From: Gammaproteobacteria bacterium
GTDB taxonomy: Bacteria; Pseudomonadota; Gammaproteobacteria; UBA4575
DNA: 64,000 nt
Direction of reading: 5' to 3'
NCBI GenBank assembly: GCA_026706595.1
Contig: JAPOYL010000009.1
Coordinates: 22,687 to 86,686, forward strand
The notes beneath the pieces were generated by a model that saw only the letters and a program-made list of their open reading frames with translations, was not told the DNA's origin and made no database searches. A program made the position numbers and the translations under genes. Each line of letters begins with the position of its first letter. Position 1 is the first letter of the stretch. Positions 1-51,761 of the stretch are shown piece by piece.

Positions 1-1
1 G

Positions 2-3000
2 ACAGCCAAACTCCCTGATCGGGGTGTGATTGTAGCCCGCGGCCCCGCCCGGGTGCATGAAGCTCCGGGCATGTGGGTTCTGATGGCGGATGAGGGCGGG
101 ACCGCTGCACATCTAGCGCACGAGCTTGCAGACCGCAATCAGACGGTGGTGCTGGCAGGCCCCGGTTTTGACAAGGCTGCCGAATTCAAGGTGTGCGGCC
201 CCGGCGTGCATGAGGTGTACGTGGATGCGATGATGCGCGAGTCTTGGCAGCAACTTGTGGAGCACTTGCCAGGTGATTTGCCCTTCAGCGGGGTGGTGCA
301 TTTCGCAGGACTCGACGGGCATGGCATGCAGGCGAGTACTGCGGAAATTGCAGGAGATGTCGAGCGCAACGGGGCGAGCGCGCTGGCCCTGGTGCAGGGT
401 GTGGCCGATTCGGTCCGTGAGCCTGACAAGGGCATCTGGTTGATCACGCGGGGGGCGCAGATTCTGGAGCGAGAGCGCGGCGGGGAACTCGCCGGTGCGA
501 TCCTGTGGGGCTTCGGCAAGGCCGTGGACCGCGAGGCGGCGCACCTGCGCCCGCAGATGATCGACCTCGACCCGCAACCCGAAGCCTCATTGCCCGATCT
601 GGCCAATGAACTGCTGTATCCCGATGCCGAAAACCACATTGCCTATCGCCTGGGTCGACGGCAGGTGGCGCGCCTGGTCCGCTTTGCGGACGGCCCAGCG
701 CGCTTGGCACTGCCGAAGACGCCGGACTGGGTGCTGGCACCGGACCCGGGCGGCACATTCGATCGCCCCTGCGTGCAGTCCCTTGCCGCGCGCGCGCTGG
801 AACCCAGGGAGGTGCGTGTCGAAGTCGATGCGGCAGGTCTGAACTTCTGGGATGTTTTCCGCTCCCTCGGGTTCATAGAGGAGGGACTGCTCGGCCGGGA
901 GATGTGCGGGCGTGTCATCGAGGCTGGCTCCGAGGTGAGCAGCGCGATTGTCGGCAAGCGCGTAATAGGACTTGGTTTCGGCGCCTTCGGTCCGCAGATG
1001 GTCACGCGAGAGGAACTTGTCTCTGTTGCCCCTTCGGGGTATTCGGTCACCGAACTTGCGACGGTGCCGAGCGCGTATGTCTCCGCAGCACTCTCCTATG
1101 AACTTTCCGGACTGCAGGCCGGCGAGCGCGTATTGATTCATGCCGGTGCCGGCGGGGTTGGCCTTGCGGCCATCCAGCTTGCCCAGGCCGCAGGGGCCGA
1201 GGTGCTGGCAACGGCAAGCATGCCCAAGCAGGCGTACCTCAGATCACTGGGGGTCGTGCATCTGTTTGACAGCCGCACGACGGCCTTCGGGGAGCAGATC
1301 CTCGAAGTGACCGGCGGAGCCGGCGTGGACGTGGTGCTGAACAGCCTGACGAGCGAAGGATTTATCGATGCCAGCCTGTCCTGTTTGCGCCAGGGAGGCC
1401 GGTTCGTGGAACTGGCCCGCAGGGACATCCTGAGCCCAGAGGAGATGGCAGCGGTGCGCCCGGATGTGGGTTATGACATCCTGGAGCTCGATGTCCTGAA
1501 AAAGACGGATCCGGCATGGGTCGGGCGGGTGCTGGACGATGTTACGAGGCAGCTCGCTTCAGGCGAAATCGGGCCGATCGTGCACAGCCGGTGGCCTCTG
1601 GCTGAAGCGGGAGCTGCCCTGCGGTTCATGCGGTCTGCCCGGCATCTGGGAAAGATTGTTGTCACGGCACCGCCGCTGGCGACAGGCCGGCTGCGCCAGG
1701 ACGCCACCTACCTTGTAACCGGTGGCCTGGGCGGGATCGGCATTGCCGTGGCCGACTGGCTGGTCGGGCAGGGTGCCGGGACCCTCGTGCTGAATGGGCG
1801 CCGCAGCCCGGATGCCGAGGCCGAGGCCGCGATCCGGGAGCTTCGCGAACGCGGGGCATCGATCCACGTGGAGATTGCGGACGTGACAGATGCCTCGGCG
1901 ATGGACCGGATGATGTCGCACATCGACCAGGAACTGCCACCTCTGGCCGGTGTGATTCATAGCGTCGGGGTGCTGTCGGACGGGGCACTGACAAATCAGA
2001 GCTGGGAGCGATTCGAACGGGTACTGGGGCCGAAGATCCTGGGTGCCTGGCACCTGCATCGCTCGACTCTGGATCGTGACCTCGATTTTTTCATTCTTTT
2101 TTCAAGCCGCGTGGGCGTGATGGGGAATCCAGGCCAGGCGAACCACGCCGCAGCCAATGCCTTTCTGGACCAGTTGGCCGGCCATCGGCGCGCCCTGGGG
2201 CTTGCCGGACAGGCGATTGCCTGGGGCGCATGGTCCGAGATCGGCGAAGCTGCAGAACAAAAAGACCGCATCGAACGCCAGCGCTCTGCACTGGGTGGAC
2301 GCTGGTTCACCCCGCAGCAAGGTCTCAAGGCCCTTGAACGGCTGGTGCGCCAGGATGTTACGACCTCCGTGGTGATGTCGATGGACTGGTCGGTGTTCGA
2401 GAAGGCCGTCAGTGCGCGACCTCCGTTTCTTGAGGAGATGCTTGTGACAGACGACGAGGCCGAAGCCGGTGCTGTGGCCTCGTCGGCCGATGTGATGGCC
2501 CGGCTGCAGCAAACCCCAGCCTCTGAACGGGGCCGCCTGCTGGAGTCGTATCTGCAGGGGGAGGTACAGGCGGTGCTGCGCCTGCCTTCGGCTCCGGAGC
2601 CCGCCGTCGGTTTTTTCGATCTCGGTATGGATTCGCTGATGGCCGTAGAACTGCGAAACCGCCTGAACCGGGCCTTCTCGGATGAGTACACTGCCTCCAA
2701 CACGGTGGTGTTCGATTACCCGGACATCATCTCGCTGGCCCGCCACCTGTCCGAGGAACTGGGCGAAGTCAAAGGGACCCCCGCGCCTCAGGTCCAGCCT
2801 GCCCCGGTGTCCGTATCCGAAGATGCATCGATCGAGGGGGGCATTGCGATCATCGGCATGGCCTGCCGGTTCCCGGGTGCCCGCAATCTTGCCGAATTCT
2901 GGCAGGTGCTCGATGAGGGGCGCGAAACCGTGAGTGACGGGCGCGAGGACACCGGTTTATGGGGTGGGGTGCTGGGGGATCCTGCAATACGCGATGCTGG

Positions 3001-4684
3001 CTACCAGCGTGGCGGGTTCATTGAGGGTATCGATCACTTCGATGCACGCTTTTTCGGCATCCGGCCGATTGAGGCACACAGCATGGACCCACAGCAACGG
3101 ATGCTGCTCGAGACGAGCTGGCAGGCACTCGAGGATGCCGGCATTGATCCTGAGCAGTTGCGGGGCAGTCCCACCGGGGTCTATGCCGGAATTGCTTCCA
3201 GCGAATACCGGGACCTGATGATGGACAGTGGTGGCCCCAGCTATCTCGGCACGGCAGGGAGCATGGCGGTCGGGCGTGTCTCGTTTTGCCTGGGCCTGGA
3301 GGGACCGGCCATGCCGGTCATGCTCAACTGCGCTTCATCTTTGGTCGCCATACATCATGCCGTAGCGAGCTTGCTCCAGGGCGAGGTGGACCTGGCGCTG
3401 GCCGGCGGAGTCAACGCGATCCTTTCGAGTGGGCTGACCCGTGAACTTGCCGAACTCGGAATGCTGTCGCGTGATGGACGATGCAAGACGTTCAATGCCT
3501 CGGCGGACGGGTTTGTACGCAGTGAAGGTTGTGGAATGATCGTCCTCAAGCGTCTTGATGAGGCGCAGGCAGATTGCGATCGAATCTGGGGCGTGATCCG
3601 CGGCTCGGCCATCAACCACAGCGGGGCGAGTGCAGGGCCTACAGTGCCGACGGGTCCGACGAAGGAACGGGTCATCGAGGAGGCGCTTGCCGGAGCATGT
3701 ATCTCACCGCACGAAGTGGACTATCTCGAGGCGCACGGAGGCGGTTCGGAGCTGGGTGATTCCATTGAAGTCAATGCTTCTGCGAGGGTCTACGGGCGCG
3801 AGCGGGAGGCGGACGATCCCCTGTTGATCGGTTCGGTGAAGACGAACCTCGGACATCTGGAATCCGCTGCCGGCATTGCGGCGCTCATCAAGACGGTGCT
3901 GGCAATGGATCGGCACAGGATTCCGCAACACCTGCATTTTCGTGACCCGAACCCGCACACGGACTGGGAGCAGTTGCCGGTGAAAGTGGTTTCTGAGGCC
4001 ATGGACTGGCCTCGGCATGAGGGTCGACCTGCGCGTGCAGGGGTCAGCGCATTCGGAATCTCCGGAACCAATGCCCACGTGGTGGTCGAAGGGTATCAGG
4101 CGTCGGAGGATGCCTCGTACCCAGAGCATCCGCGATCTTCTCCCGCAGGAAATGCACAACTGGTGACGTTGCCCCCGTCGGATTCATCCCGGGAGACCCC
4201 CTCTGAAATACCTGCAACCGACTTGCGAAAGACCCGCCTGTTGCCGCTTTCTGGCAAGTCTGAAGGCGTTCTCAGGGAACTGGCCGAAGCGTATCTTGCC
4301 TGGCTCGATGCACACTCGAAGGAGCTTTCGGATGATGACAGTGCATCCGGCCCCCTGCTTTCGGATATGGCATGGACGGCCAGTACGGGACGCGCCCACT
4401 TCGCTCATCGGGCCGGTGTCCTGTTCAGTGACGTGGCCTCGCTCCGGGCTCAACTTCAGTCACTTGCCAGGGGCACTGGCAAAGAGGTGCCCGCAGCGGC
4501 AGCGAAGGAAAACTCCCATGATGTGCAGACGGATGAAGTGCCTTCCTTCATGCTGGAAGTTGCAGAAGCCTACGAGGCAGGGCAAGCGGTTTCGCTCGCA
4601 GGTCTTTTTGAAGGCGAGATGCGAAGGCGAATTTCTGTGCCGGACTATCCATTCGAACGGCAGAGGTTTTGGGTCAAGGCCTAA
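2..4684 (+). CDS. Type I polyketide synthase, 5'-truncated at the window edge. Domains: psiKR/ER (~713-1661), KR (~1706-2276), ACP (~2540-2770), KS (~2846-4110), then an AT-less post-KS linker to the stop.
   Basis: The reading frame is open from nt 2. The ER region is quinone-oxidoreductase-like (GxGxxG in 'HAGAGGVGLAAIQ'). The KR Rossmann motif is 'TGGLGGIGIAVADWL'. The ACP Ser motif is 'LGMDSLMAVELRNRL'. The KS has Cys in 'NCASSLVAIHHA', 'EAHGGGSELGD' and 'KTNLGHLESAAG'. The C-terminus ends with the 'YPFERQRFW' linker motif. No acyltransferase GHSxG domain follows. Confidence 0.85.
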   Translation, partial: TAKLPDRGVIVARGPARVHEAPGMWVLMADEGGTAAHLAHELADRNQTVVLAGPGFDKAAEFKVCGPGVHEVYVDAMMRESWQQLVEHLPGDLPFSGVVHFAGLDGHGMQASTAEIAGDVERNGASALALVQGVADSVREPDKGIWLITRGAQILERERGGELAGAILWGFGKAVDREAAHLRPQMIDLDPQPEASLPDLANELLYPDAENHIAYRLGRRQVARLVRFADGPARLALPKTPDWVLAPDPGGTFDRPCVQSLAARALEPREVRVEVDAAGLNFWDVFRSLGFIEEGLLGREMCGRVIEAGSEVSSAIVGKRVIGLGFGAFGPQMVTREELVSVAPSGYSVTELATVPSAYVSAALSYELSGLQAGERVLIHAGAGGVGLAAIQLAQAAGAEVLATASMPKQAYLRSLGVVHLFDSRTTAFGEQILEVTGGAGVDVVLNSLTSEGFIDASLSCLRQGGRFVELARRDILSPEEMAAVRPDVGYDILELDVLKKTDPAWVGRVLDDVTRQLASGEIGPIVHSRWPLAEAGAALRFMRSARHLGKIVVTAPPLATGRLRQDATYLVTGGLGGIGIAVADWLVGQGAGTLVLNGRRSPDAEAEAAIRELRERGASIHVEIADVTDASAMDRMMSHIDQELPPLAGVIHSVGVLSDGALTNQSWERFERVLGPKILGAWHLHRSTLDRDLDFFILFSSRVGVMGNPGQANHAAANAFLDQLAGHRRALGLAGQAIAWGAWSEIGEAAEQKDRIERQRSALGGRWFTPQQGLKALERLVRQDVTTSVVMSMDWSVFEKAVSARPPFLEEMLVTDDEAEAGAVASSADVMARLQQTPASERGRLLESYLQGEVQAVLRLPSAPEPAVGFFDLGMDSLMAVELRNRLNRAFSDEYTASNTVVFDYPDIISLARHLSEELGEVKGTPAPQVQPAPVSVSEDASIEGGIAIIGMACRFPGARNLAEFWQVLDEGRETVSDGREDTGLWGGVLGDPAIRDAGYQRGGFIEGIDHFDARFFGIRPIEAHSMDPQQRMLLETSWQALEDAGIDPEQLRGSPTGVYAGIASSEYRDLMMDSGGPSYLGTAGSMAVGRVSFCLGLEGPAMPVMLNCASSLVAIHHAVASLLQGEVDLALAGGVNAILSSGLTRELAELGMLSRDGRCKTFNASADGFVRSEGCGMIVLKRLDEAQADCDRIWGVIRGSAINHSGASAGPTVPTGPTKERVIEEALAGACISPHEVDYLEAHGGGSELGDSIEVNASARVYGREREADDPLLIGSVKTNLGHLESAAGIAALIKTVLAMDRHRIPQHLHFRDPNPHTDWEQLPVKVVSEAMDWPRHEGRPARAGVSAFGISGTNAHVVVEGYQASEDASYPEHPRSSPAGNAQLVTLPPSDSSRETPSEIPATDLRKTRLLPLSGKSEGVLRELAEAYLAWLDAHSKELSDDDSASGPLLSDMAWTASTGRAHFAHRAGVLFSDVASLRAQLQSLARGTGKEVPAAAAKENSHDVQTDEVPSFMLEVAEAYEAGQAVSLAGLFEGEMRRRISVPDYPFERQRFWVKA

Positions 4685-4738
4685 CGCACTTCGCGATCAC
4701 GGGTCTGTTTTGACGAGTTGTGGGTACCACAGCCGCCT

Positions 4739-5635
4739 TCAGGCGTCGGGCAACTGTTGCTGTTCCTGGAATTCTCGCACCGCTGATACACAGTCCACCG
4801 GCTTTTCCAGTTGAAGAAGGTGTGTGGTCTCAGGGATGAAATCATAATCGACAGTCAGGACGTCGCTGAGATCGAACGTCGGCAGATAGGCATACGGCAA
4901 GGTCGGGTCCGCGCCGATGACCTTCGTCGGACACGGGAGCGTTTCAAAATCCACCAGCGGGGAAAAGCTGCGGACATAATCGGTGATCTGGGCTTCGTAT
5001 TCGCGTGGGCAGCGCAACTCATACCCCAACCCGTCGGGAACCTCGCGAAGCGTAGTCTTGGCCATGAGCTCCCGGACCCCGGGAACCACATGGGTGAAGG
5101 TCGGGATGTAGCTCAGGAAATCAGAAAATTCTTCCTCTGTCTGGAATCGGTATCCACGTCGGCGCGTCAGCGATGCAGCGTGTTCGGCAGCTACGTCAAA
5201 TTCGGTCTGGCTGGCACCAGGCTTGCATACGGGCGGGTCGAAAAGAATCTGTGCCGAGCAGCTGTTGTCCTGCGGTGCCGTCAGCAGCGAGATCAGCGCC
5301 GCGACGGAGTGTAATACCCCGATCTTGGGCTTGTTGCCATAGTGGCGGTCGATGGATTCCAGTATCAGGGCATAATCCTGTATCAGCACGGGCACGTTGT
5401 GATCGCGGCGTTCGCCCACGGAATTCCAGCCATGGTTTCTAAGGTCGTAGAGGATCAGCTCAAAGTCCTCGGCAAGCAGCGACCAGAACGGGTAGTACAG
5501 GTCAATGGCGAGACCGTTGCCATGACACAGCACGAGTCGAGGCCCGGACGGATTGCCGTGCTGTCGCAAGAGCGTGACTGTATTTTTATCCAGCCGGACT
5601 TCACACACTGAGATTGGTTCAGGAATTTCCCACAT
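4739..5635 (-). CDS. Alpha/beta-fold hydrolase, a candidate thioesterase or release enzyme for the adjacent PKS
   Basis: A 298-aa ORF with an oxyanion-hole 'LVLCHGNG' and nucleophile-elbow-like 'GVLHSVAA'. It is convergent with the PKS gene. Confidence 0.6.
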   Translation of the reverse strand: MWEIPEPISVCEVRLDKNTVTLLRQHGNPSGPRLVLCHGNGLAIDLYYPFWSLLAEDFELILYDLRNHGWNSVGERRDHNVPVLIQDYALILESIDRHYGNKPKIGVLHSVAALISLLTAPQDNSCSAQILFDPPVCKPGASQTEFDVAAEHAASLTRRRGYRFQTEEEFSDFLSYIPTFTHVVPGVRELMAKTTLREVPDGLGYELRCPREYEAQITDYVRSFSPLVDFETLPCPTKVIGADPTLPYAYLPTFDLSDVLTVDYDFIPETTHLLQLEKPVDCVSAVREFQEQQQLPDA

Positions 5636-5719
5636 GATCCTTATGAGGCAGGTCGCATTCTCGTTTTATCAGGTTCAAAAGACCGGACCGAATCGCTTGG
5701 TTCGTTTTCCGGGGCGGCA

Positions 5720-6457
5720 TCACACCGGGTTAAGTTCATGTGCCAGGGCTGCGGCAAAATTCGGGTCATCCAGGGATTCAAGCCACCACCGGACTTGCGG
5801 CAGCTGAGGGAAGCAGAATTCGCCTGCATTCATCTCCTGGCGCAGGGTTTTCGGAATTTCGATTCCTGACATGTCCAGCGAGAATCCCGTACCCAGTGCC
5901 TTGAGCAATGCTTCTTTCATCGTCCACAGGCGGAAAAACAAGTGGATTTTCTGCGGGCCGTGGGTCGCAGCAAGGTCCTCACGCTCGTTCGGGGTAAATA
6001 CCGACTGAATATCTTCATCCAGGTTCTGTTGCATGTTCCGTTCTTCCACGTCCACTCCGACACGTCCATGCAGGGCAAGCGCTACCAGCCCGTGCTGGTG
6101 GCTGTGGCTGACGTTGAAACCGATGCCCTCTTGTTCTCCATCCACCAGGGCATGGGGTTTTCCGTATTTCGATGTCCCAAAGGCGAGTTGTTCGTTGCGG
6201 CAGTCGAGATGTTTGCAGAGAATCGCACGCAATGCTGCACGGCACAAGCTGAATTCATACCGGGCACGGACATGGCGAAACCGGTGCCAACGTGCCTGTT
6301 CCTCGGAATCCAGCCACTCCAGCGCCTCGGCCTCACGAGTGTTGTGAGGCCGCAGGTCCACATGAAAAATTGTGGTATCCCGGGTTTTCCTGTACGGATG
6401 CCACCAGTCATTTGTTGCGGTGGCCAATTCCTTGTGCGTGCTCACCTTCAGGGGCAC
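5720..6457 (-). CDS. 4'-phosphopantetheinyl transferase, Sfp/EntD type
   Basis: PPTase signature motifs are present: 'GKPHAL', 'GFNVSHSHQHGLVA', 'GVDVEE' and 'WTMKEALLKALGTG'. Confidence 0.85.
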   Translation of the reverse strand: MPLKVSTHKELATATNDWWHPYRKTRDTTIFHVDLRPHNTREAEALEWLDSEEQARWHRFRHVRARYEFSLCRAALRAILCKHLDCRNEQLAFGTSKYGKPHALVDGEQEGIGFNVSHSHQHGLVALALHGRVGVDVEERNMQQNLDEDIQSVFTPNEREDLAATHGPQKIHLFFRLWTMKEALLKALGTGFSLDMSGIEIPKTLRQEMNAGEFCFPQLPQVRWWLESLDDPNFAAALAHELNPV

Positions 6458-6597
6458 AGGGTCGAGTCACGTTGTACGGTGCCCCGATTGTCCATGACCA
6501 TCGCAGTGTCTGCGTTTGTCCCGGCCTGGGAACTAGGGCACACGTGCACCACGATATCCGGATGCAGTTCTGCCTACATCCCTGAACCGGAAAAGGT

Positions 6598-6828
6598 TTA
6601 CCCGGAGTTTGAATCCAGATAGGCGGCCAGTTCCCGCAGAGACTGGAACTGGGAGAAGTCTTCAGGAGGGACTGTCACTCCGAATTCCTGGCTGACCTTC
6701 TTGATGAAGGCGACGGCATCCACAGAGGACACACCAGAGTCACCAAAGCGGGTGTCCATATCCGGTTCCCTGCCAGTATCCAGATTTTCATTTGCTAGTG
6801 CCATGAGGCGGTCTTCTGTTGAGGACAT
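6598..6828 (-). CDS. Stand-alone acyl carrier protein (PP-binding)
   Basis: A 76-aa acidic protein with 'FGDSGVSSVDAVAFIKKV', adjacent to the PPTase. Confidence 0.65.
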   Translation of the reverse strand: MSSTEDRLMALANENLDTGREPDMDTRFGDSGVSSVDAVAFIKKVSQEFGVTVPPEDFSQFQSLRELAAYLDSNSG

Positions 6829-7325
6829 GATGAGATTCTCCTGATTGTTTTAGTTGGTTTTTGGTGTAGACAGACCGGTATTTTAGGTGCAGGCACGTTT
6901 TCAGACAAGGGCGAGTGTAAGTCGCCAGTGATCCTGGGCGGGCATGCCACGGAATCGATCCTGGACGCGACCACTGGTCGTATACGGTTCTTAGGGTATG
7001 CGTTCGGAATTACTGCATCTTTTTGTGCGCATTTTTGAACGGATGTTGCCGGACTGCGTCTATACCTGTATAGGTTACTGTCGCTTCCCGAGAGCACCTG
7101 TCCGTGTCATGACTTGTCTGGGGCTTTCACTTACAATGACAGAACAGGAAACTGCCTGGGTCGGGGAGCGCAGTCCATCTGAATTGATTTGTCAAGATTG
7201 GCGGGAGTCCGTATGTCTGTACCGGTGAATGAGGAAGGAAGCCATACGGCTTCGGCCGACCGTCCGGTCCGGGTTCCTGCCGCAGGCGCAATGATGTCAG
7301 GCGGTCGCTTTCCCCTACAGGGCTC

Positions 7326-13773: not shown

Positions 13774-14544
13774 GTGTCAAAACTGTATTGTTCAAAATCC
13801 GGCCAAGGTCCGAATCTTGTATTGTTGCATGGATGGGGGTCGAGTTCGAAAATCTGGCACAAGGTGGCCGGCGATCTGGCCTTGAAATATCAAGTCTGGT
13901 GCGTCGATCTGCCGGGACACGGACACAGTCATGCCATGCACTGGGATTGCAGCACCGAACAGGGGATGCAGTTGCTTGCCGACGTGTTACCCCCTGCTGC
14001 CAGCTTCCTCGGCTGGTCCTTGGGGGGGCTGTGGGCCTTGCTGTATGCCAGGCAGTATCCTGATCGGGTCGTCGATGTGATGCTCGTTTCAAGTGCTCCA
14101 AGATTCACTGCGACACAGGAGTGGCCACATGGCATGGCACAGACGGAATTGCTGGATTTTTCGCGGCAGTTTTCGAAGGCCCCACAGCAGACCCTGAAAA
14201 AATTCTGTTCGCTGCAGGCTATCAACAGTGATCGCGCAAAACCCACGCTTGTTGCATTGCGCAGTGCCTTGTCCAGTTCCCCTGTCCATACCGGGAATAT
14301 CGCCTGGGGTTTGAAATGGCTGGAGCAGGTCGATCTGCGCTCAGACAGCAGGCTTTCGCATCTGCCTGTGGACTTGCTGCATGGTGAGGAGGATCAGGTG
14401 TTGCCTGTCGACACCGCCGAGGGTACGAATCGCATTTGGCCACATGCGCGAGTCGAGCGCATTCCAAAGGCCGGGCATGCTCCGTTTGTTTCACATCCCG
14501 AACAGTTTTTGCAGTGGGTAGCCCAAAGGAAAATCCATGAGTGA
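13774..14544 (+). CDS. bioH: Pimeloyl-ACP methyl ester carboxylesterase
   Basis: An alpha/beta hydrolase with 'LVLLHGWGSSSKIW' and 'GWSLGG', directly upstream of bioC. Confidence 0.75.
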   Translation: MSKLYCSKSGQGPNLVLLHGWGSSSKIWHKVAGDLALKYQVWCVDLPGHGHSHAMHWDCSTEQGMQLLADVLPPAASFLGWSLGGLWALLYARQYPDRVVDVMLVSSAPRFTATQEWPHGMAQTELLDFSRQFSKAPQQTLKKFCSLQAINSDRAKPTLVALRSALSSSPVHTGNIAWGLKWLEQVDLRSDSRLSHLPVDLLHGEEDQVLPVDTAEGTNRIWPHARVERIPKAGHAPFVSHPEQFLQWVAQRKIHE

Positions 14545-15424
14545 GCATGCGGACATAAAAAAGCAGCGTGTGCGCGATGATTTCTCGAAAGCTGTTGCCA
14601 GTTACGATACTGCTGCAGTGCTGCAACACGAGGTGTGTGAACGCACTCTTGAACGCGTGGACATGCTCAAGCTCCAGCCTCGGCGTGTGCTTGATGTCGG
14701 AACTGCAACCGGTCGCAGCCTGAAGGGCCTCGCTTCCCGTTTTCCCAACAGTTCAATGGTTGCCTGCGATCTTGCCTTGCCCATGCTGTTGTGGTGTCGT
14801 CGACATCACGATGCCGAGTACACGAATGCACTCGTGTGCAATGATGCAGAACAGCTGCCTTTTGCAGATGGATCGGTCGACCTGGTTTTTTCTTCCTCAA
14901 CGTTTCAGTGGTGTGTGAACCTGCCGCAGGTATTTTCCGAATGCATGCGAGTGCTGCGCATCGACGGTGTGCTGATATTTTCCACATTCGGGCCTGACAC
15001 CCTGCACCAGTTACGTGACAGTTTTGCGAGACTGGATGATTACCGGCATGTGCACGAGTTTGTCGACATGCACCATATCGGCGACATGCTGTTGGCAGAA
15101 CAATTTACAGACCCGGTCGTTGACATGGAGATGATCGATATTCAATATCAATCCCTGTTGCAGCTGCTGCAGGATCTGAAAAACACCGGTAGCCGTGGAA
15201 AATTTGGCTCCGCGCACGTCACGCCTACGGGGTTGATGGGAAGACAGAAATACCGCTCGCTGGTGCAGGCTTACGAAGAGTACCGTCAGGATAACGGCAT
15301 GCTTCCGGCAAGCTACGAGGTGATCTACGGCTATGCCCGCAAGTCGGCGAAGCCTGTATCAGAAGCAGCGGACGACAACGAGGTCAGGATACCGGTCGAC
15401 CACCTGCAAGGCAGAAACCGATAG
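14537..15424 (+). CDS. bioC: Malonyl-ACP O-methyltransferase
   Basis: A SAM-dependent methyltransferase with motif I 'VLDVGTATGRS'. It overlaps bioH by 8 nt. Confidence 0.75.
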   Translation: MSEHADIKKQRVRDDFSKAVASYDTAAVLQHEVCERTLERVDMLKLQPRRVLDVGTATGRSLKGLASRFPNSSMVACDLALPMLLWCRRHHDAEYTNALVCNDAEQLPFADGSVDLVFSSSTFQWCVNLPQVFSECMRVLRIDGVLIFSTFGPDTLHQLRDSFARLDDYRHVHEFVDMHHIGDMLLAEQFTDPVVDMEMIDIQYQSLLQLLQDLKNTGSRGKFGSAHVTPTGLMGRQKYRSLVQAYEEYRQDNGMLPASYEVIYGYARKSAKPVSEAADDNEVRIPVDHLQGRNR

Positions 15425-17550: not shown

Positions 17551-17935
17551 TTCTGAGCAGTTTTCCCTACCTGAACTCGGGTTCCATGCTGTCGCCCAGG
17601 ACGCGCAGGGCAAACGGTTCCGAATTGGCGCACCCGCCATGATCGGCGAGGTCAGCCTGTAGACCGCGAACAAGTACTGCCATCGTATCCGGACCCTCGG
17701 TGCCTCATTAAAAAATTTTATCAATAATTTTTTGTTTATAAGCTCTGGGTATTCTTGGGGCATTTGGAAAAAATACTAAGATTTCAAGCTTATATGATTT
17801 TGCCCACTTCTTGTGTTCGGAGTCTGGCATCCACACAATCCATTGTGTACAATCACTGCCATACGCATTGCGTAATCGACCAACAAAAAGCGAGGAAAAC
17901 GTCATGGAGCAAATGATTCAAAGTGAGGTGGAAAA

Positions 17936-18044
17936 GCGCCGGTAGCTAAAGAGGCATAAGCACATACTGGCGTGGCGTTCAATTCCCGTCAGGCATGGTC
18001 GTAGCACTAGCTGCGTGCCGGTTCGAGTCCGGTCCGGCGCACCA
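17936..18044 (+). other. tRNA/tmRNA 3'-end-like element (T-arm GGTTCGAGTCC, 7-nt acceptor strand, discriminator A, CCA); not a complete tRNA
   Basis: The T-stem-loop 18017..18033 and acceptor 3' strand 18034..18040 could pair with GCGCCGG at 17936..17942. The 109-nt span cannot be folded into a canonical cloverleaf. Confidence 0.3.
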
Positions 18045-18077
18045 TCTTACAAAAATTCAAATCTGAACGAAGACACA

Positions 18078-18218
18078 TCAAGTCTTCTTTCTTTTCCCAG
18101 CAGCAAAGATCGCCTTTGCTACATATTCAGGACTTTCATCAATCTTCAGAACACGGGTTTTCGGTCTGCCACGTGGCAGTTTTTCCTGTGCAGTCTTCTT
18201 TGGATTAGTCTTACCCAT
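18078..18218 (-). CDS. AT-hook micro-protein (46 aa), paralog 1
   Basis: '...LPRGRPKTRVLKIDESPEYVAKAIFAAGKRKKT'. It shares the RGRP...SPE(Y/N)(V/I)AKAI(F/M) core with 18774..18965. Confidence 0.5.
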   Translation of the reverse strand: MGKTNPKKTAQEKLPRGRPKTRVLKIDESPEYVAKAIFAAGKRKKT

Positions 18219-18320
18219 TAAAAAGAAGTATAGGGTTTTAGTCTGTGTTAGTAAATTGGCTAATTGATTGGCATCGCATGATTATCTATGCTTGTCTATA
18301 GTTTCCTACTAGGACATAAA

Positions 18321-18515
18321 ATGGATAAAAGTAATTTAAATAATCTAGATGGTGAGTTGAACGCTCTAGCTGATTTCATAGTCAACTTTGTCGGAGTCTC
18401 AGGTCTAAAAATTCAAATGATCCAAAAGCTCAAATCTGGCTTAACGAAAGATGTTAAAGGTACAGACTATGAAGCTAGGTTGCAGTATTTCATAAAACAA
18501 TTAGAAAAACTCTGA
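18321..18515 (+). CDS. Hypothetical small helical protein
   Basis: An ORF in AT-rich cargo DNA with no recognisable motif. Confidence 0.25.
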   Translation: MDKSNLNNLDGELNALADFIVNFVGVSGLKIQMIQKLKSGLTKDVKGTDYEARLQYFIKQLEKL

Positions 18516-18773
18516 CGCATCTTATTTGGGAAATATAAAGATTAGGGGTTTATATACTTGTTTACCTATCGGACTAATGCTTCTGGGATCTTTCCCACAC
18601 AACTCCTTCTTTTCTACAAATCCTTTTAATGTCTCTTCCTTTCATCTGTAAAAAATGCACTCCTTCCTTTTGTTTTTAATATTGCCAATAATTCGCTATT
18701 AAGTTATTTCCATAGTGATTACCACTTCAACTGTATCTTCTGGACTATAAGTTTCTTCCACAAGTTTCTCCTT

Positions 18774-18965
18774 TCAATCCTCTTTCAGATAATCCCAGTC
18801 TTTCTTCGGAGACCCCTTCATAATTGCCTTGGCAATGTTCTCCGGGCTGTCTGGCACTTTAGGAGGCATTTTCTTGGTCACAGGCCGACCCCGCTTGTGA
18901 GCCTTTACCTTCAATGTCTTTTTGCCTTTAACCTGCTTCATCTCTATACTTTCCTCTAACGACAT
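18774..18965 (-). CDS. AT-hook micro-protein (63 aa), paralog 2
   Basis: '...KAHKRGRPVTKKMPPKVPDSPENIAKAIMKG...'. It is Lys-rich. Confidence 0.55.
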   Translation of the reverse strand: MSLEESIEMKQVKGKKTLKVKAHKRGRPVTKKMPPKVPDSPENIAKAIMKGSPKKDWDYLKED

Positions 18966-19124
18966 TCATGTAGATACCCTGGTCGGGTTATCTGCTTAAT
19001 ACAATAGCCATTTACGCATCAGGGTAGCTCCCTGATGTTTGGTAAAGAGGCGGAACCTCTCCGTACTTCTACGTGGATGTCGTATGACCCGGCACCATGC
19101 ACGTAACAAAAAGGAGAGGTGGTC

Positions 19125-19424
19125 ATGCGTTCTTTCAATATTCTCGTCATTTCAATTCTCATAAGCGGGTGTGCTACTAGCAATTATTTCGTTGCCACTG
19201 GCAGTCGCGCGGATGGAACGGTTGAGGTGGCCTGCAACTACGACATGTTTAATATTTGCAAACACGATGGGAGTCCCAATGGATCCAGCGCAGCCGGTCA
19301 AGCTTGCCGAAGTTGGGGATATGACGGTGCCCGCTCTTTTGGAGGTTATACCAACCAACCTAGATATGACGGTACAGGCCAGGTAAGAATCCTGTACCAG
19401 TGTTATGGTGATCCTGAGAAGTAA
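19125..19424 (+). CDS. Small lipoprotein (Cys-rich, about 100 aa)
   Basis: Signal peptide plus lipobox 'LISGC', with an AAGGAGAG RBS 8 nt upstream of the ATG. Confidence 0.6.
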   Translation: MRSFNILVISILISGCATSNYFVATGSRADGTVEVACNYDMFNICKHDGSPNGSSAAGQACRSWGYDGARSFGGYTNQPRYDGTGQVRILYQCYGDPEK

Positions 19425-19434
19425 GGGGAGAAAC

Positions 19435-19608
19435 ATGGAATACATCATCCCTTACCTTTTTGCCTTTGGCCTTTGTGGTTTGCTGGCTTTTGCAATACAG
19501 GGAGAAAATTCTGAAGGGAAAGGATTAGCCTTTGCCTTGGGATTTCTGTTTGGACCTTTAGGAATTCTCATTGTGTTGATCACGAAACTAGCAAAGACAA
19601 AGAAATAA
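19435..19608 (+). CDS. Two-helix mini membrane protein (57 aa)
   Basis: 'MEYIIPYLFAFGLCGLLAFAIQG...GFLFGPLGILIVLITKLAKTKK'. An AGGGGAG RBS follows immediately after the lipoprotein stop. Confidence 0.5.
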   Translation: MEYIIPYLFAFGLCGLLAFAIQGENSEGKGLAFALGFLFGPLGILIVLITKLAKTKK

Positions 19609-19657
19609 AAACTCATGCCACTCTGATAACATAGCCAAAATTAATTAGGAAATCTTG

Positions 19658-19987
19658 ATGACAGAAAATCCCTCAAAACCCCAATCAGTTCGAGCTCAAA
19701 AGCATGCTGCTTCTCCAGAACATTCTGAAAGTCGACTTCGACATGTGAAGGGATTTGATTTGTATCAGGCAGACAATACAGAGTCCTATGTCCTAGATTT
19801 TCACTTTCATACTTTACAGAATTATCCTGCAGACGAAATGACAACCCTTGTGGGAGATCATTTTCCTCAAATTTTGGAAAGGAAGGATCTTCAGAAGCTT
19901 GCCTATAAAATTCTAAAGACATTGCGAGAAGAGCTTCAAGCTCCTGTCGAGAAGTGGAACGATGATATTGATTCCTTGAAGATTTAA
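19658..19987 (+). CDS. Hypothetical protein (about 109 aa). A fully overlapping 133-aa antisense ORF (19641..20042) is an alternative.
   Basis: An AGGAAA RBS lies 7 nt upstream of the ATG. The call is ambiguous between strands. Confidence 0.35.
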   Translation: MTENPSKPQSVRAQKHAASPEHSESRLRHVKGFDLYQADNTESYVLDFHFHTLQNYPADEMTTLVGDHFPQILERKDLQKLAYKILKTLREELQAPVEKWNDDIDSLKI

Positions 19988-20022
19988 AGGATTCAAAATT
20001 AATAATATTGTTGTTATTCACC

Positions 20023-20958
20023 CTAAGACACCAATTCCTCATACTTCAACCGCTTGCCTTCCATGCGCTTGGCAACAAACGCCATCTGGCGGATTGTATC
20101 CAGCTCCCTGATATTGAAGCGTCCTGCGAACTCCTGCACATAGCGATTCAGGTGCTTTTTGCTGATGTGATGATACGTGCCGTGGTACCCACGCTTGAGT
20201 AGTGCCCAGAAGGACTCGATGCCGTTGGTGTGGGCCATGCCCCTCACAAACTCACTGGTAGAATGTCGGACGGCCCTGTGGTCATAGCGTTTGTATAGTT
20301 GCATGTAAGCCCGATTATCGTCTGTGATCAGTGTGGCCTCTGGGTCCATGTTCTCGGCAATAAACTTGTGCAGCGTGTACGCCGTGGTGTCTTCGGCAGT
20401 CTTGGCCCGAATCTCTTTACTGTCTCTGCACTTCATACCGACCACAATTGCCTTGTCCGTAGCTCCTCGTCCCTTGAGAGTCTTGCGCTTGGCATTGTGC
20501 ATGTTCTTTCGCTTTCCACCCATGTAGGTCTCATCCACTTCCACAGTGCCTCGCAGAAGCCCATCGCCTTCATCAAAGGCCTCCCGAATGCGTTGTAGCA
20601 TGTACCAGGCTGACTTCTGGGTTATTCCGAGTTCCCGACTCAGCTTCATGCTGGAAATGCCCTTGAGATTAGTGGTCGCCATGTAGATCGCGATCACCCA
20701 GTGTTGGAGCTTGATCTTGGAACCTTCCATGACCGACCCTTTTTTGACGCTGAAGAATTGCCGGCAATCACGGCAGCGATAACGCATGGTCTTGTGGGTC
20801 GTATGGGTGTGGTTGACAGACCCGCAATCAGGACAGACCGGACCATCAGGCCAACGCTGCTCCTCAAGCCATTGCTCAGCAGTCCTGTCATCAGGGAACA
20901 TCTGAAGCAGCTCAATGATTGTAATCCCTTTCCGGTGTGACTTGCCTGGACCTGCCAT
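20023..20958 (-). CDS. IS1595-family (ISXO2-like) DDE transposase
   Basis: An N-terminal zinc ribbon 'PDGPVCPDCGS...YRCRDCRQFFSV', then 'KGISSMKLSRELGITQKSAWYMLQRIR' and a DDE domain (311 aa). Confidence 0.85.
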   Translation of the reverse strand: MAGPGKSHRKGITIIELLQMFPDDRTAEQWLEEQRWPDGPVCPDCGSVNHTHTTHKTMRYRCRDCRQFFSVKKGSVMEGSKIKLQHWVIAIYMATTNLKGISSMKLSRELGITQKSAWYMLQRIREAFDEGDGLLRGTVEVDETYMGGKRKNMHNAKRKTLKGRGATDKAIVVGMKCRDSKEIRAKTAEDTTAYTLHKFIAENMDPEATLITDDNRAYMQLYKRYDHRAVRHSTSEFVRGMAHTNGIESFWALLKRGYHGTYHHISKKHLNRYVQEFAGRFNIRELDTIRQMAFVAKRMEGKRLKYEELVS

Positions 20959-30313: not shown

Positions 30314-31330
30314 TCAGGATTGGTAGAGTGCCTCGATCTCCACCAGCAGGTCGGTCCGGCACATGTCTCCCAGCAGCAAAATCCGTGGCGTCGTGCTGGA
30401 CAAGCGTGCAGCCAGCACTCTTTGGATGTGGGGCACGTCGCGGCGATGGCGCACGTACACTTTCATGCACAGCAGATCGTCCTGTGCGTTCAGTTGCGTT
30501 CCATGCCTGTGATTGGCGTGCACGACCAGGGTTTCTACGTTGTTCAGGGATTCGTTGAGTTGCGCGCCAACGTCATCCACGTGCCGGGTCTCATGCCCGA
30601 CGATACTGGCTGTGCCCGAGACATAAAAGTGAGTACAGTTGCTCCAGTGCTTGAGGACTCCCCGCGAAAACAGGGGCGGTGCCTGCACATTGGCAATCGG
30701 GTAGTCATAGGCGCTCGTCTGTCGCGGGTTCTCGACAGCAATCCCCGGAACATCACCCGCCAGAAAATAAATTTGCAGATAGGGGTTCTGGTTGCCGATC
30801 ACGGTGGCCGCAGGATAGATGCTGCTCTCGGCATCGCAGGCCTGCATGGCCTGCAGGCGGCCACTGCAAAACAGGTCGTAGCGGCTCGACTGGTCTCCAG
30901 CCGGATCGGTAATGCCGGGAAAGTAGTTCCAGGTACGCAACAGATGATTGCAGGCGGTGCTTTGCAGGCAGTCGTAGATTTCCTGGTAGGCCTGCATGGC
31001 CAGCGCCTGGAAATCGCCTGAATCTGGACAGGCCAGCTGGAGATGACCAAACAGTACCTGGGGGTGACACGCATATTGAATGTTTGCGTGCTTTCCTTGC
31101 GTGACCTGGCCACTCGTATACCAGTTCTGAAAATGGAAATCAGACCCCTGCAGAACCTCCAGGCGGCTGTTGACTGACCACCCCTTTGCAGGGCGTTGTC
31201 CGGGATTCCCGAAATGCACGTGTGTCAGCAGGGCGGAGTCATCCATGGACGGGTCCGCGCTTTCGTGGACTGCAACTTTCAGGCTGGGCACTGTACCGAA
31301 GTGGCCGGGTTTGGGATTACCTGCTGTCAT
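30314..31330 (-). CDS. XanB2/FkbO/Hyg5-family chorismatase-like protein (formerly annotated as 'pteridine-dependent deoxygenase')
   Basis: About 338 aa with a RidA/YjgF-like C-terminal half. The call is by recalled family similarity, not a strict motif. Confidence 0.4.
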   Translation of the reverse strand: MTAGNPKPGHFGTVPSLKVAVHESADPSMDDSALLTHVHFGNPGQRPAKGWSVNSRLEVLQGSDFHFQNWYTSGQVTQGKHANIQYACHPQVLFGHLQLACPDSGDFQALAMQAYQEIYDCLQSTACNHLLRTWNYFPGITDPAGDQSSRYDLFCSGRLQAMQACDAESSIYPAATVIGNQNPYLQIYFLAGDVPGIAVENPRQTSAYDYPIANVQAPPLFSRGVLKHWSNCTHFYVSGTASIVGHETRHVDDVGAQLNESLNNVETLVVHANHRHGTQLNAQDDLLCMKVYVRHRRDVPHIQRVLAARLSSTTPRILLLGDMCRTDLLVEIEALYQS

Positions 31331-49478: not shown

Positions 49479-51761
49479 TCAGCGGGGCTGGTCAAGGTTG
49501 ATATGCACGGGTTCCAGCGTGTCGCTTTGGGGCAGCACCTGTCCCACGATACAGGCATGCCGGTAGCCCAGCTCGTGCAATTCCGCGATGCAGGCATCGG
49601 CATGCCTGCCAGGTAGGGTGGCGAGCAAGCCCCCGGAAGTTTGCGGGTCAAACAGCAACGGGTAGTGCGGATGCTGAGTAGCTGCTTCGGGATTTTTGAC
49701 TGCGCGGCGCAGGCGTACATTGGAAGGCTGCAGGGAACTGAATATTCCCATCTCGATAGTTTCGGCAGCGCCGTCGAGAACCGGCAGCATGTTCAAGTCA
49801 ATCGTGATGTCCAGCTGGGCCGCACGTACCATCTCCAGCAAGTGACCCAGCACGCCAAAGCCCGTGATGTCGGTGCACGCATGCACGTCATACTTGTACA
49901 GGCATTGCGCGGCCATGTGATTTGAAACGAGCATGCAATCTATGGCATCCACGATCCAGCGACCCCTGGCCTTGCCCCGCATCTCTGCTGCAAACAAGGT
50001 GCCCGTGCCAACCGGTTTGGTGACGATGATGACATCGTCAACCTGCATCCCCCCTTTGGCAAGCAGTCGTTCTTTTTCGATCAGCCCGGTAACACTGAGC
50101 CCAAAGGCAAGCTCGGCCCCCTCGCTGGAGTGTCCCCCGACCAGCGCCGCCTTGTGCTGATCCAGGACCCGCACCGCACCGTCCATGATTTGCAGAAGCT
50201 GCTGCTCAACCACGTTCTCTTTTCCGTACGGGATGGTTGCAATGGCCATGGCCGCCTGTGCCTCTGCACCCATCGCAAACACATCGCTGAGGCTGTGGTT
50301 AGCGGTGACCTGTCCAAATACAAACGGGTCATCGATAAACGCCCGGAAATAATCGACGGACTGAACCTGTACTTTGCCGGGGGGTACGGTCACGGCCGCG
50401 GCATCATCCGGTGCATCCAGTCCGAGCAGCACGTCCTCACGAAGGTGGGGCGACAGCTGGTTGATGACGCGGCTTAGGACATTGCTGCCAATTTTTGCGC
50501 CGCATCCGCCACAACGCATGGCAATTGCAGAGATTTCCTCGAGCGTATCGCGGCTTGCCAGTCTGCTGTCCACGAGGTCGTCATGCTTTTCTTGCATTTC
50601 AGGGAGACGGTTGTACTTGTGCATGAATCTCCGGTCGATCAGATCCTTGAGCTTCCAGACCCAGGCACCTTCAGTGGCTAACGCTCCACGGGAGGCCACT
50701 GCATACTTGTTGCCGGTACTGACCAGACTCAGGAAGCTGATTTGTGGCACATGTTCTTTCAGGCGTCTGTTTTCCAGTGCACGCCTCAGATTCTTGTACA
50801 GCGGCTTCCCCTGCCGAACCGCAAACACACCGGACTTGGGCCGCGGATAATCGGTCACCGCAGCGATGTCACCTGCTGCAAAAACGTCACTGTGGGACAC
50901 TGACTGCAGGGAACTGTTTACCTGGATGAACCCTCGCTCATCCACGGCAAGCCCGGATTCCCTATACCAGGTTGGCGCGGATGCATGGGTTGCCCAAATT
51001 GTCGCGTCCGCGTGCAAGGAATTACCGGAATCCAGCTGCAGGGTATGGGCGTTAGCTTCCATGACCATGCATGCCTTGTGTATCGTAATCTGACGCTCTG
51101 CCAGAATGCGCATGAAGCGGTGCTGTACGGAGGGGTTATGTGTAGGCAATACGGTGCCGTTGCTGCAGATGATGTGAAAACGGAGCTTGTCCACAGGCAG
51201 GTCTTGCTGGCGTAGTAACTTGTGCAGGTGATACTGCGTGGACAGGGCGACCTCGACACCGCCAGCACCTGCGCCCACCACGGCCATCTGGTAATCGCCC
51301 TTGCGTGTGAGCACTTCATCCATGATGGCGTCCCAGCCCCGTAGAAACCGGTGGATGGGCTTGACTCCCAGTGTGTGTTCTCTTGAGCCGGGAACCTCTG
51401 TGAAGGAAGGTGTTGATCCCGTGTTAATGGACAGTACATCGTAATGTACGGGCGGCCGGTCGCCGCACAGAACATACTTGTTTTCCAGGTCCAAAGAGTT
51501 GGCATTTACATGGAACAGGCGTGCTCCGGCAAACCGGGCCAAGGGCTGCAAATCGATATGGCTTTCGTCAAAACTGTAATGACCCGCGATGTAGCCCGGC
51601 AACATCCCGGAATAAGGGGTGTGTACATCGCGGCTGATCAGGGTGATCTGCAGGCCCGCAATGGGCTTCATGCCGAATCGTTTGAGCACGGCAACGTGGC
51701 TGTGGCCTCCCCCGATCAACACCAAGTCCTTGATCACCGTGCTGTTTTTCGGTTTCTGCAA
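49479..51761 (-). CDS. selD: Fusion protein: NDH-2-like FAD/NAD(P) oxidoreductase plus selenide,water dikinase SelD (SenC-like)
   Basis: N-terminal 'LVLIGGGHSHVAV' and 'VVGAGAGGVE' Rossmann motifs. C-terminal SelD with 'RCGGCGAKIG', 'VDYF', 'GGHSSEG' and an AIR-synthase-like C-terminal domain. Confidence 0.85.
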   Translation of the reverse strand: MQKPKNSTVIKDLVLIGGGHSHVAVLKRFGMKPIAGLQITLISRDVHTPYSGMLPGYIAGHYSFDESHIDLQPLARFAGARLFHVNANSLDLENKYVLCGDRPPVHYDVLSINTGSTPSFTEVPGSREHTLGVKPIHRFLRGWDAIMDEVLTRKGDYQMAVVGAGAGGVEVALSTQYHLHKLLRQQDLPVDKLRFHIICSNGTVLPTHNPSVQHRFMRILAERQITIHKACMVMEANAHTLQLDSGNSLHADATIWATHASAPTWYRESGLAVDERGFIQVNSSLQSVSHSDVFAAGDIAAVTDYPRPKSGVFAVRQGKPLYKNLRRALENRRLKEHVPQISFLSLVSTGNKYAVASRGALATEGAWVWKLKDLIDRRFMHKYNRLPEMQEKHDDLVDSRLASRDTLEEISAIAMRCGGCGAKIGSNVLSRVINQLSPHLREDVLLGLDAPDDAAAVTVPPGKVQVQSVDYFRAFIDDPFVFGQVTANHSLSDVFAMGAEAQAAMAIATIPYGKENVVEQQLLQIMDGAVRVLDQHKAALVGGHSSEGAELAFGLSVTGLIEKERLLAKGGMQVDDVIIVTKPVGTGTLFAAEMRGKARGRWIVDAIDCMLVSNHMAAQCLYKYDVHACTDITGFGVLGHLLEMVRAAQLDITIDLNMLPVLDGAAETIEMGIFSSLQPSNVRLRRAVKNPEAATQHPHYPLLFDPQTSGGLLATLPGRHADACIAELHELGYRHACIVGQVLPQSDTLEPVHINLDQPR

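Follow-up and report, generated by a model that had tools for sequence, protein, structure and literature searches.

The 64,000-nucleotide stretch of DNA analysed here (the window; contig JAPOYL010000009.1 of assembly GCA_026706595.1, from a gammaproteobacterium of the UBA4575 lineage) begins inside a polyketide synthase (PKS) gene, which ends in a ketosynthase (KS) that is not followed by an acyltransferase (AT). This odd-looking AT-less terminal KS is explained by a known and common cassette. The PKS gene and its neighbours, encoding an alpha/beta hydrolase, a 4'-phosphopantetheinyl transferase (PPTase) and a free acyl carrier protein (ACP), form a further copy of the sponge symbiont ubiquitous PKS (Sup) family, which is already named and very common; the case for this assignment is strong, though indirect. 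The synthase consists of a single complete module, C-methylating and fully reducing, that contains its own AT (AT1) and is followed by an extra KS (KS2). The best joint explanation, with a probability of roughly 0.65, is a Sup-type cassette that travels as a mobile unit, in which KS2 condenses onto the free ACP and the product is a methyl-branched fatty acyl chain. The cassette comprises the following features.

2 to 4684, plus strand: partial supA-type PKS gene, the 3' 4.7 kb encoding the C-terminal 1560 amino acids; 99.8% nucleotide identity to OZ242174.1
2 to 800, plus strand: plausible psiKR (structural half of a ketoreductase), following a C-methyltransferase sited just upstream of the window
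803 to 1666, plus strand: enoylreductase (ER) with intact NADPH motif HAGAGGVG (Pfam, motif check)
1703 to 2239, plus strand: ketoreductase (KR) with His at the catalytic Tyr position (residue 715, nt 2144-2146, GQANHAAAN)
2549 to 2749, plus strand: integrated ACP, GMDSLMA, Ser878
2843 to 3940, plus strand: KS2, with Cys1110 (nt 3329-3331), His1245 (nt 3734-3736, EAHGGGS) and His1285 (nt 3854-3856)
3947 to 4681, plus strand: KS-AT linker domain fused straight to the post-AT linker, AT core deleted; junction at about nt 4511, YPFERQRFW from 4646
4739 to 5635, minus strand: alpha/beta hydrolase (Pfam Abhydrolase_6/1)
5720 to 6457, minus strand: Sfp/HetI-type PPTase (ACPS and AASDHPPT_N)
6598 to 6828, minus strand: discrete ACP of 76 amino acids (Pfam PP-binding)
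6880 to 6912 (6908 to 6880), minus strand: promoter-like site upstream of the ACP gene, at the edge of a block that is near-identical in a sister genome

Translation of 2 to 4684 gives 1560 open codons with the C-terminus ...YPFERQRFWVKA and the stop at 4684, the reading frame closing with ...ISVPDYPFERQRFWVKA before that stop. Pfam places the ER (ADH_N/ADH_zinc_N) at residues 268-555, the KR at 568-746 (E=1.5e-64), a PP-binding domain at 850-916 and the N and C halves of the KS at 948-1313 (ketoacyl-synt, E=1e-79 and 3e-37), followed at 1316-1491 by KAsynt_C_assoc, CurL-like_PKS_C and RhiE-like_linker, a KS-MAT linker. Acyl_transf_1 has no match in this protein. The order psiKR-ER-KR-ACP-KS followed by linker, YPF..W and stop, drawn up in a first-pass annotation of the window, was thus borne out, as was the placing of hydrolase, PPTase and free ACP on the opposite strand. 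The psiKR is the weakest element: the N-terminal 260 residues match the structural KR half of 2z5l at E=0.003 and lie inside the alignment to the NCBIfam Pks2 model, which makes the label plausible.

The missing 5' half of the gene is provided by a sister genome. An exact-sequence look-up found an identical hydrolase on the 1.85-Mb chromosome of an uncultured gammaproteobacterium (OZ242174.1, locus L001 in our sample), where the PKS gene is complete, with 3214 codons open throughout, and a shikimate kinase gene lies upstream of it. Pfam finds in it a KS (residues 30-407), a linker, an AT (591-872), a dehydratase (DH), a methyltransferase (MT, 1484-1646), ER, KR, ACP, a second KS, a linker and the stop, so that the full order on one 3214-residue polypeptide, with the C-methyltransferase as cMT, is KS-AT-DH-cMT-psiKR-ER-KR-ACP-KS-linker. 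Since only 13 of the 6912 positions of the cassette (1 to 6912, 0.19%) differ between the two genomes, the 5' half of the window's gene can be inferred with little risk. AT1 carries the motifs GHSVGE and ARAFHS, and the motifs of DH, ER, AT1 and the integrated ACP as well as the S-adenosylmethionine (SAM) motif of the MT are intact, as is that of the free ACP. The first-pass annotation, which had asked for this upstream sequence, had considered that it might reveal a complete module with its own AT and that the terminal KS might then be a degenerate KS0. The complete module is there; the degenerate KS is not, as the catalytic triad is conserved. Because module 1 has its own AT, the cassette is neither AT-less nor a trans-AT system.

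Sup enzymes have been described as unusual small mono-modular PKSs that dominate the KS amplicons from high-microbial-abundance sponges (PMC4245539, PMC3908369), and Sup clusters have been found in metagenome-assembled genomes (MAGs) of Chloroflexota, Spirochaetota, Proteobacteria and Acidobacteriota independently of taxonomy (PMC9426513). The cassette shares these properties. The sister full-length protein is, by Pfam, a mono-modular type I PKS with a full reducing loop like that of a fatty acid synthase (FAS) and a C-methyltransferase, and KS1 contains the motifs known from PCR surveys of sponges, DPQQR in 17 of 18 loci and EAHGTGT in 18 of 18. The accessory gene set is present as well: ACP, PPTase and hydrolase genes all lie beside the window's PKS gene. 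We take supB-D to be these ACP, PPTase and hydrolase genes, with the hydrolase corresponding to SupD. Two differences were seen. An AT relic after KS2, 140-210 residues long in most relatives, is wholly gone in the window lineage, and no gene for the permease SupE (PMC3908369) adjoins the cassette in the window.

The distribution points in the same direction. The hydrolase has about 3000 homologues, the best 120 of them at 64-97% identity, and is present in at least 586 species genomes (one genome per species scanned). For the best 80 of these at least 586 genomes we mapped the domains of the window by tblastn. All 80 loci come from uncultured MAGs that span more than ten phyla: Gammaproteobacteria, Alphaproteobacteria, Nitrospirales, Latescibacterota, Acidobacteriota (Bryobacterales, Thermoanaerobaculia and Vicinamibacteria), Spirochaetia, Rhodothermales, Chloroflexota, Gemmatimonadota, Binatia and Nitrospinota. 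Among the genome names are Candidatus Porisulfidus, the SB06xx bin series, which is counted among the sponge-symbiotic Entoporibacteria (PMC7883664), and several names of sponge-microbiome bins; the record of the window's own MAG states no source. In 72 of the 80 loci the hydrolase and the PKS are no more than 10 kb apart, and PKS fragments at contig ends were found in 3 more. A free ACP is present in 63 loci and the PPTase in 22. The genes are convergent as in the window in 46 loci; in 14 the hydrolase precedes the PKS, and in 12 the PKS is followed by the ACP, the PPTase where present, and the hydrolase. This linkage persists despite rearrangement across phyla, which shows that the cassette genes work together. 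Parts of the cassette are occasionally duplicated, with two free ACP genes in L037 and L066 and two hydrolase copies 4 kb apart in L060. A terminal KS combined with a discrete ACP had been regarded as unusual at first; it is instead the rule in a very large family in which the second AT is dead or absent.

Comparison of the C-terminal tails allowed us to follow how the AT of the second module disappeared. In module 1 about 520-535 residues separate the end of the KS from the YPF motif, and in most relatives 430-490 residues lie between the end of KS2 and the stop. The relics found there match mainly positions 2 to about 120 of the 319 positions of the Acyl_transf_1 profile, and the small subdomain and the His region of the xAFH motif are absent from every relic in the alignment. 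The Ser of GHSxG is kept in only 5 of about 57 relics (Nitrospirales and Porisulfidus); otherwise the motif reads GHGxG, GRGxG or GQGxG, the Ser being usually replaced by Gly. The tails of L004-L081 thus form a graded series, from relics with Ser (5 loci) through relics with Gly (most) and shorter relics (L047 and L057) to complete excision. The AT core is wholly absent in ten loci, the window lineage among them, and since the AT-less junctions differ in at least four groups (L001/L003; L023; L042; L043/L058; L039/L051/L073), the relic has been excised several times independently. The linker domain and the segment ...AYEAG..LFAGE.RRRI.LP.YPFQRRR.W are kept in all cases. As judged from these aligned tails, the AT-less end is the last stage of an AT decay that runs through the whole family, and KS2 descends from a KS-AT pair. 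On the same comparison, the AT-less state of the KS2 module is derived from a cis-AT state, recently and repeatedly.

An assembly artefact or a functionless decaying pseudogene is a very unlikely explanation of the AT-less end: constraint on the AT region has clearly been relaxed in the family, but the same in-frame junction occurs in the window, in OZ242174.1 and in L003 (hydrolase 90% identical), the frame is open over all 3214 codons and the linker segments beside the deletion are conserved.

KS2 looks functional. The Cys/His/His triad noted in the first-pass annotation is confirmed, with Cys1110 in LNCASS and His1285 in KTNLGH, and it is kept throughout the family: the Cys in 68 of 68 loci, the first His in 67 and the second in 68. 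The atypical HGGGS, also noted there, proved to be one variant of a clade signature, since KS2 reads HG[AGST][GA]S and HGTGT is invariant in KS1. The two KS form separate groups, the nearest neighbour of a KS being never in the other group, and mean identity is 71% within KS2, 76% within KS1 and 59% between them. Typical KS0 domains lose the His of HGTGT, and KS2 has lost neither this His nor the Cys. The retention of both His suggests that KS2 is a decarboxylating and condensing enzyme rather than a transfer domain of the KS0 type.

A further condensation by KS2 onto the free ACP is most likely, and this leads to the following proposal. Module 1 would extend a fatty-acyl primer with malonate, as suggested by the malonyl-type motif ARAFHS of AT1, methylate C-2 and reduce the product fully. 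The alpha-methyl chain would then pass from the integrated ACP to KS2, which would perform a further decarboxylative condensation, using malonate bound to the discrete ACP. The latter would have to receive its malonyl group from AT1 of this protein or from the cellular FabD, and its phosphopantetheine site is probably Ser35 (G-V-S-S-V-D, nt 6724-6726). The PPTase would activate both ACPs. The hydrolase might cleave the product off the discrete ACP; alternatively, the type II FAS might first extend the ACP-bound chain. The expected product class would be a methyl-branched fatty acyl chain. This would match the mid-chain methyl-branched fatty acids proposed for Sup (PMC4245539, PMC3908369). The first-pass annotation had held that the product class cannot be assigned from the window; a proposal in the literature does exist (PMC4245539).

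The hydrolase to which the release step would fall represents a separate, tightly conserved family in which the nucleophile elbow reads H-S and a C-terminal His is invariant. The window's copy has Ser110 in G-V-L-H-S-V-A (nt 5306-5308) and His272 (nt 4820-4822). A profile search against the PDB returned generic alpha/beta hydrolases alone (best 5a62, E=6e-5), and no NCBIfam model scored above its cut-off. The structure prediction has a mean pLDDT (predicted local distance difference test) of 58.5, with the cap region below 50.

Several points weigh against this explanation. The 5' half of the window's gene is inferred from the sister genome. The assignment to Sup draws on architecture, gene content and distribution together with secondary literature, and the reference SupA-D sequences were not compared directly. 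No Sup-named protein was among the listed homologues of KS2, the hydrolase or the amplicon region of KS1, where the matches listed were at most about 1.75 times the length of the query and full-length SupA was thereby excluded, and our literature search found no open text stating the domain order of SupA or the functions of SupB-D. The relaxed HGTGT of KS2 could mean altered chemistry and not ordinary condensation. The interaction of KS2 with the free ACP and the loading of the latter by AT1 or FabD are predictions. In 70 of 70 related KR domains a His occupies the position of the catalytic Tyr (GQANHAAAN, compared with GQGAYAAAN in mycocerosic acid synthase, MAS); the KR otherwise keeps its NADPH motif, Ser and Asn and is among the best conserved domains. 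If this KR were inactive, the predicted fully reduced product would be wrong. To our knowledge, neither product nor mechanism has been demonstrated for any Sup cluster to date.

The main competitor, which we consider unlikely, is a KS2 that does not elongate but serves for transfer or gatekeeping, handing the finished chain to the free ACP or directly to the hydrolase without condensation. It would fit that the second module lacks a functional AT throughout the family, that no reducing domains follow KS2, and that HGTGT is degenerate there while invariant in KS1. It would not fit that both decarboxylation His are kept in 67-68 of 68 loci across many phyla, the one in HGTGT being lost from typical KS0 domains, or that KS2 domains share 71% mean identity with each other.

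A split-module trans-AT logic, in which a dedicated free-standing AT is encoded elsewhere, had been suggested from the window and is clearly less probable than a transfer domain. The likeness is structurally apt: the tail of the window is colinear with solved AT-less KS-linker structures of trans-AT systems (7zma, 6mhk, 4wky, 6mhl and 5elp), and as in AT-less trans-AT modules the linker domain comes after the KS and runs straight into ...LP.YPF..R.W, with the ACP supplied separately. The linker domain and YPF..W linker left in the window lineage pack against the KS. However, module 1 has its integrated AT, and a tblastn search with AT1 found no other AT in the 64-kb window and none outside the PKS within 10 kb of it in the 80 loci, although a FabD may lie farther away in the genome. 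Moreover, the relatives show a decaying cis-AT and not an ancestral AT-less state.

It might also be that KS2 and the discrete ACP are a priming device that makes or loads the starter for KS1. This is still less probable: the ACP, PPTase and hydrolase genes do lie directly upstream of the PKS in many loci, and sequence alone gives no order of domain use, but KS2 follows the integrated ACP directly, like a downstream module, so that colinearity favours downstream action, and it has Cys and not the Gln of decarboxylating loading KSs.

The Sup-type cassette can also be set against other known enzymes. The best solved-structure and NCBIfam matches of the ER-KR-ACP part are MAS and the MAS-like PKSs (Pks2; 9d2y, E=1.6e-45), which are likewise single fully reducing modules and build methyl-branched fatty acids on a fatty-acyl primer. 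However, MAS takes its methyl branches from methylmalonyl-CoA and has no second KS, whereas the cassette has a SAM-dependent cMT, the malonyl-type AT motif ARAFHS instead of YASH, and His for the Tyr of MAS in the KR. Its score against the Pks2 model, 752.6 bits, is far below the curated cut-off of 2400. The fungal highly reducing iterative PKSs of the LovB type share the order KS-AT-DH-cMT-psiKR-ER-KR-ACP and an extra C-terminal domain; the cassette, in contrast, is bacterial, its extra domain is a KS and not a condensation or reductase domain, and the likeness does not imply iterative use. Swf, the sponge widespread FAS-like PKS (PMC3908369), is another mono-modular PKS/FAS family that many sponge symbionts carry. 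Unlike the cassette, SwfA has the order KS-AT-DH-ER-KR-ACP without MT, second KS or DPQQ, contains HATGT, and is paired with SwfB (a reductase-sulfotransferase) and SwfC (a radical SAM protein).

Taken together, these observations allow a tentative wider reading, to which we give clearly less weight than to the Sup assignment with a condensing KS2. Sup might be a natural series for the origin of a trans-AT-like KS module from a cis-AT one, in which the small subdomain and the His were lost, the Ser turned into Gly and several independent clean excisions spared nothing but the linker domain and the strap YPF..W. Together with an ACP and a hydrolase of its own, KS2 might then be a gate that condenses alpha-methyl-branched chains, which ordinary FabF and FabB would refuse, and returns them to fatty acid synthesis, and the KR might work with His for the near-universal catalytic Tyr.

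The comparison with OZ242174.1 also bears on the mobility of the cassette. Over 15.6 kb the two genomes are 95.8% identical, but the near-identity of the cassette ends abruptly at about position 6913, some 85 bp upstream of the start of the ACP gene and adjoining the promoter-like site. From 6913 on (compared to 15637) divergence is 3-15%, with 4.0% for PBP1A and 4.1% for hemE. A near-identical cassette beside diverged flanks, with a sharp switch between them, indicates a recent exchange; the whole cassette was evidently exchanged as a unit, by recombination or horizontal transfer, as far as the two sequences tell. The G+C content of the PKS is 62-65%, compared with about 56% for the window. 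A scan for terminators where the PKS and hydrolase genes converge gave no signal above shuffle expectation, and Rfam and tRNA scans of the window gave no match.

Further features lie outside the cassette. At 13774 to 15424 (plus strand) a second alpha/beta hydrolase gene (BioH-like, with a weak thioesterase match) is followed by a SAM methyltransferase gene (BioC/UbiE-like), probably a biotin-pathway pair that does not belong to the PKS cassette. The region 17600 to 20958 has a low G+C content (34-49%) and small open reading frames only, adjoins the gene of an IS1595-family transposase (20023 to 20958, minus strand) and is probably an insertion. The gene at 49479 to 51761 (minus strand) fuses a pyridine-nucleotide-disulphide oxidoreductase domain to AIR-synthase-related (SelD-like) domains. 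At 30314 to 31330 (minus strand), between genes for gamma-glutamyltranspeptidase and oxoprolinase, lies a gene with an FkbO/Hyg5-like chorismatase N domain (E=4e-32). It had been proposed as a possible source of a hydroxybenzoate starter, an idea that found no support and was dropped: the gene is 25 kb away from the PKS, no link between the two was found in the window, and the housekeeping genes in between include PBP1A, hemE, tsaD, plsY, the BioH-like hydrolase, the methyltransferase, COX15/CtaA and a sigma factor.

In sponge microbiomes no PKS genes are more abundant than Sup clusters, and PCR screens that look for drug-relevant PKSs are flooded by them. The copy in the window is a clean minimal synthase without an AT relic, of the kind carried by a small (1.85 Mb) gammaproteobacterial genome, and would make a convenient expression construct. 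The family comparison yields three hypotheses on the enzyme, namely that the second AT is dead everywhere, that KS2 is alive and that the KR has His for Tyr. Useful leads to the product of Sup enzymes may be found in the decay of the AT across the family, the conservation of KS2 and the His of the KR.

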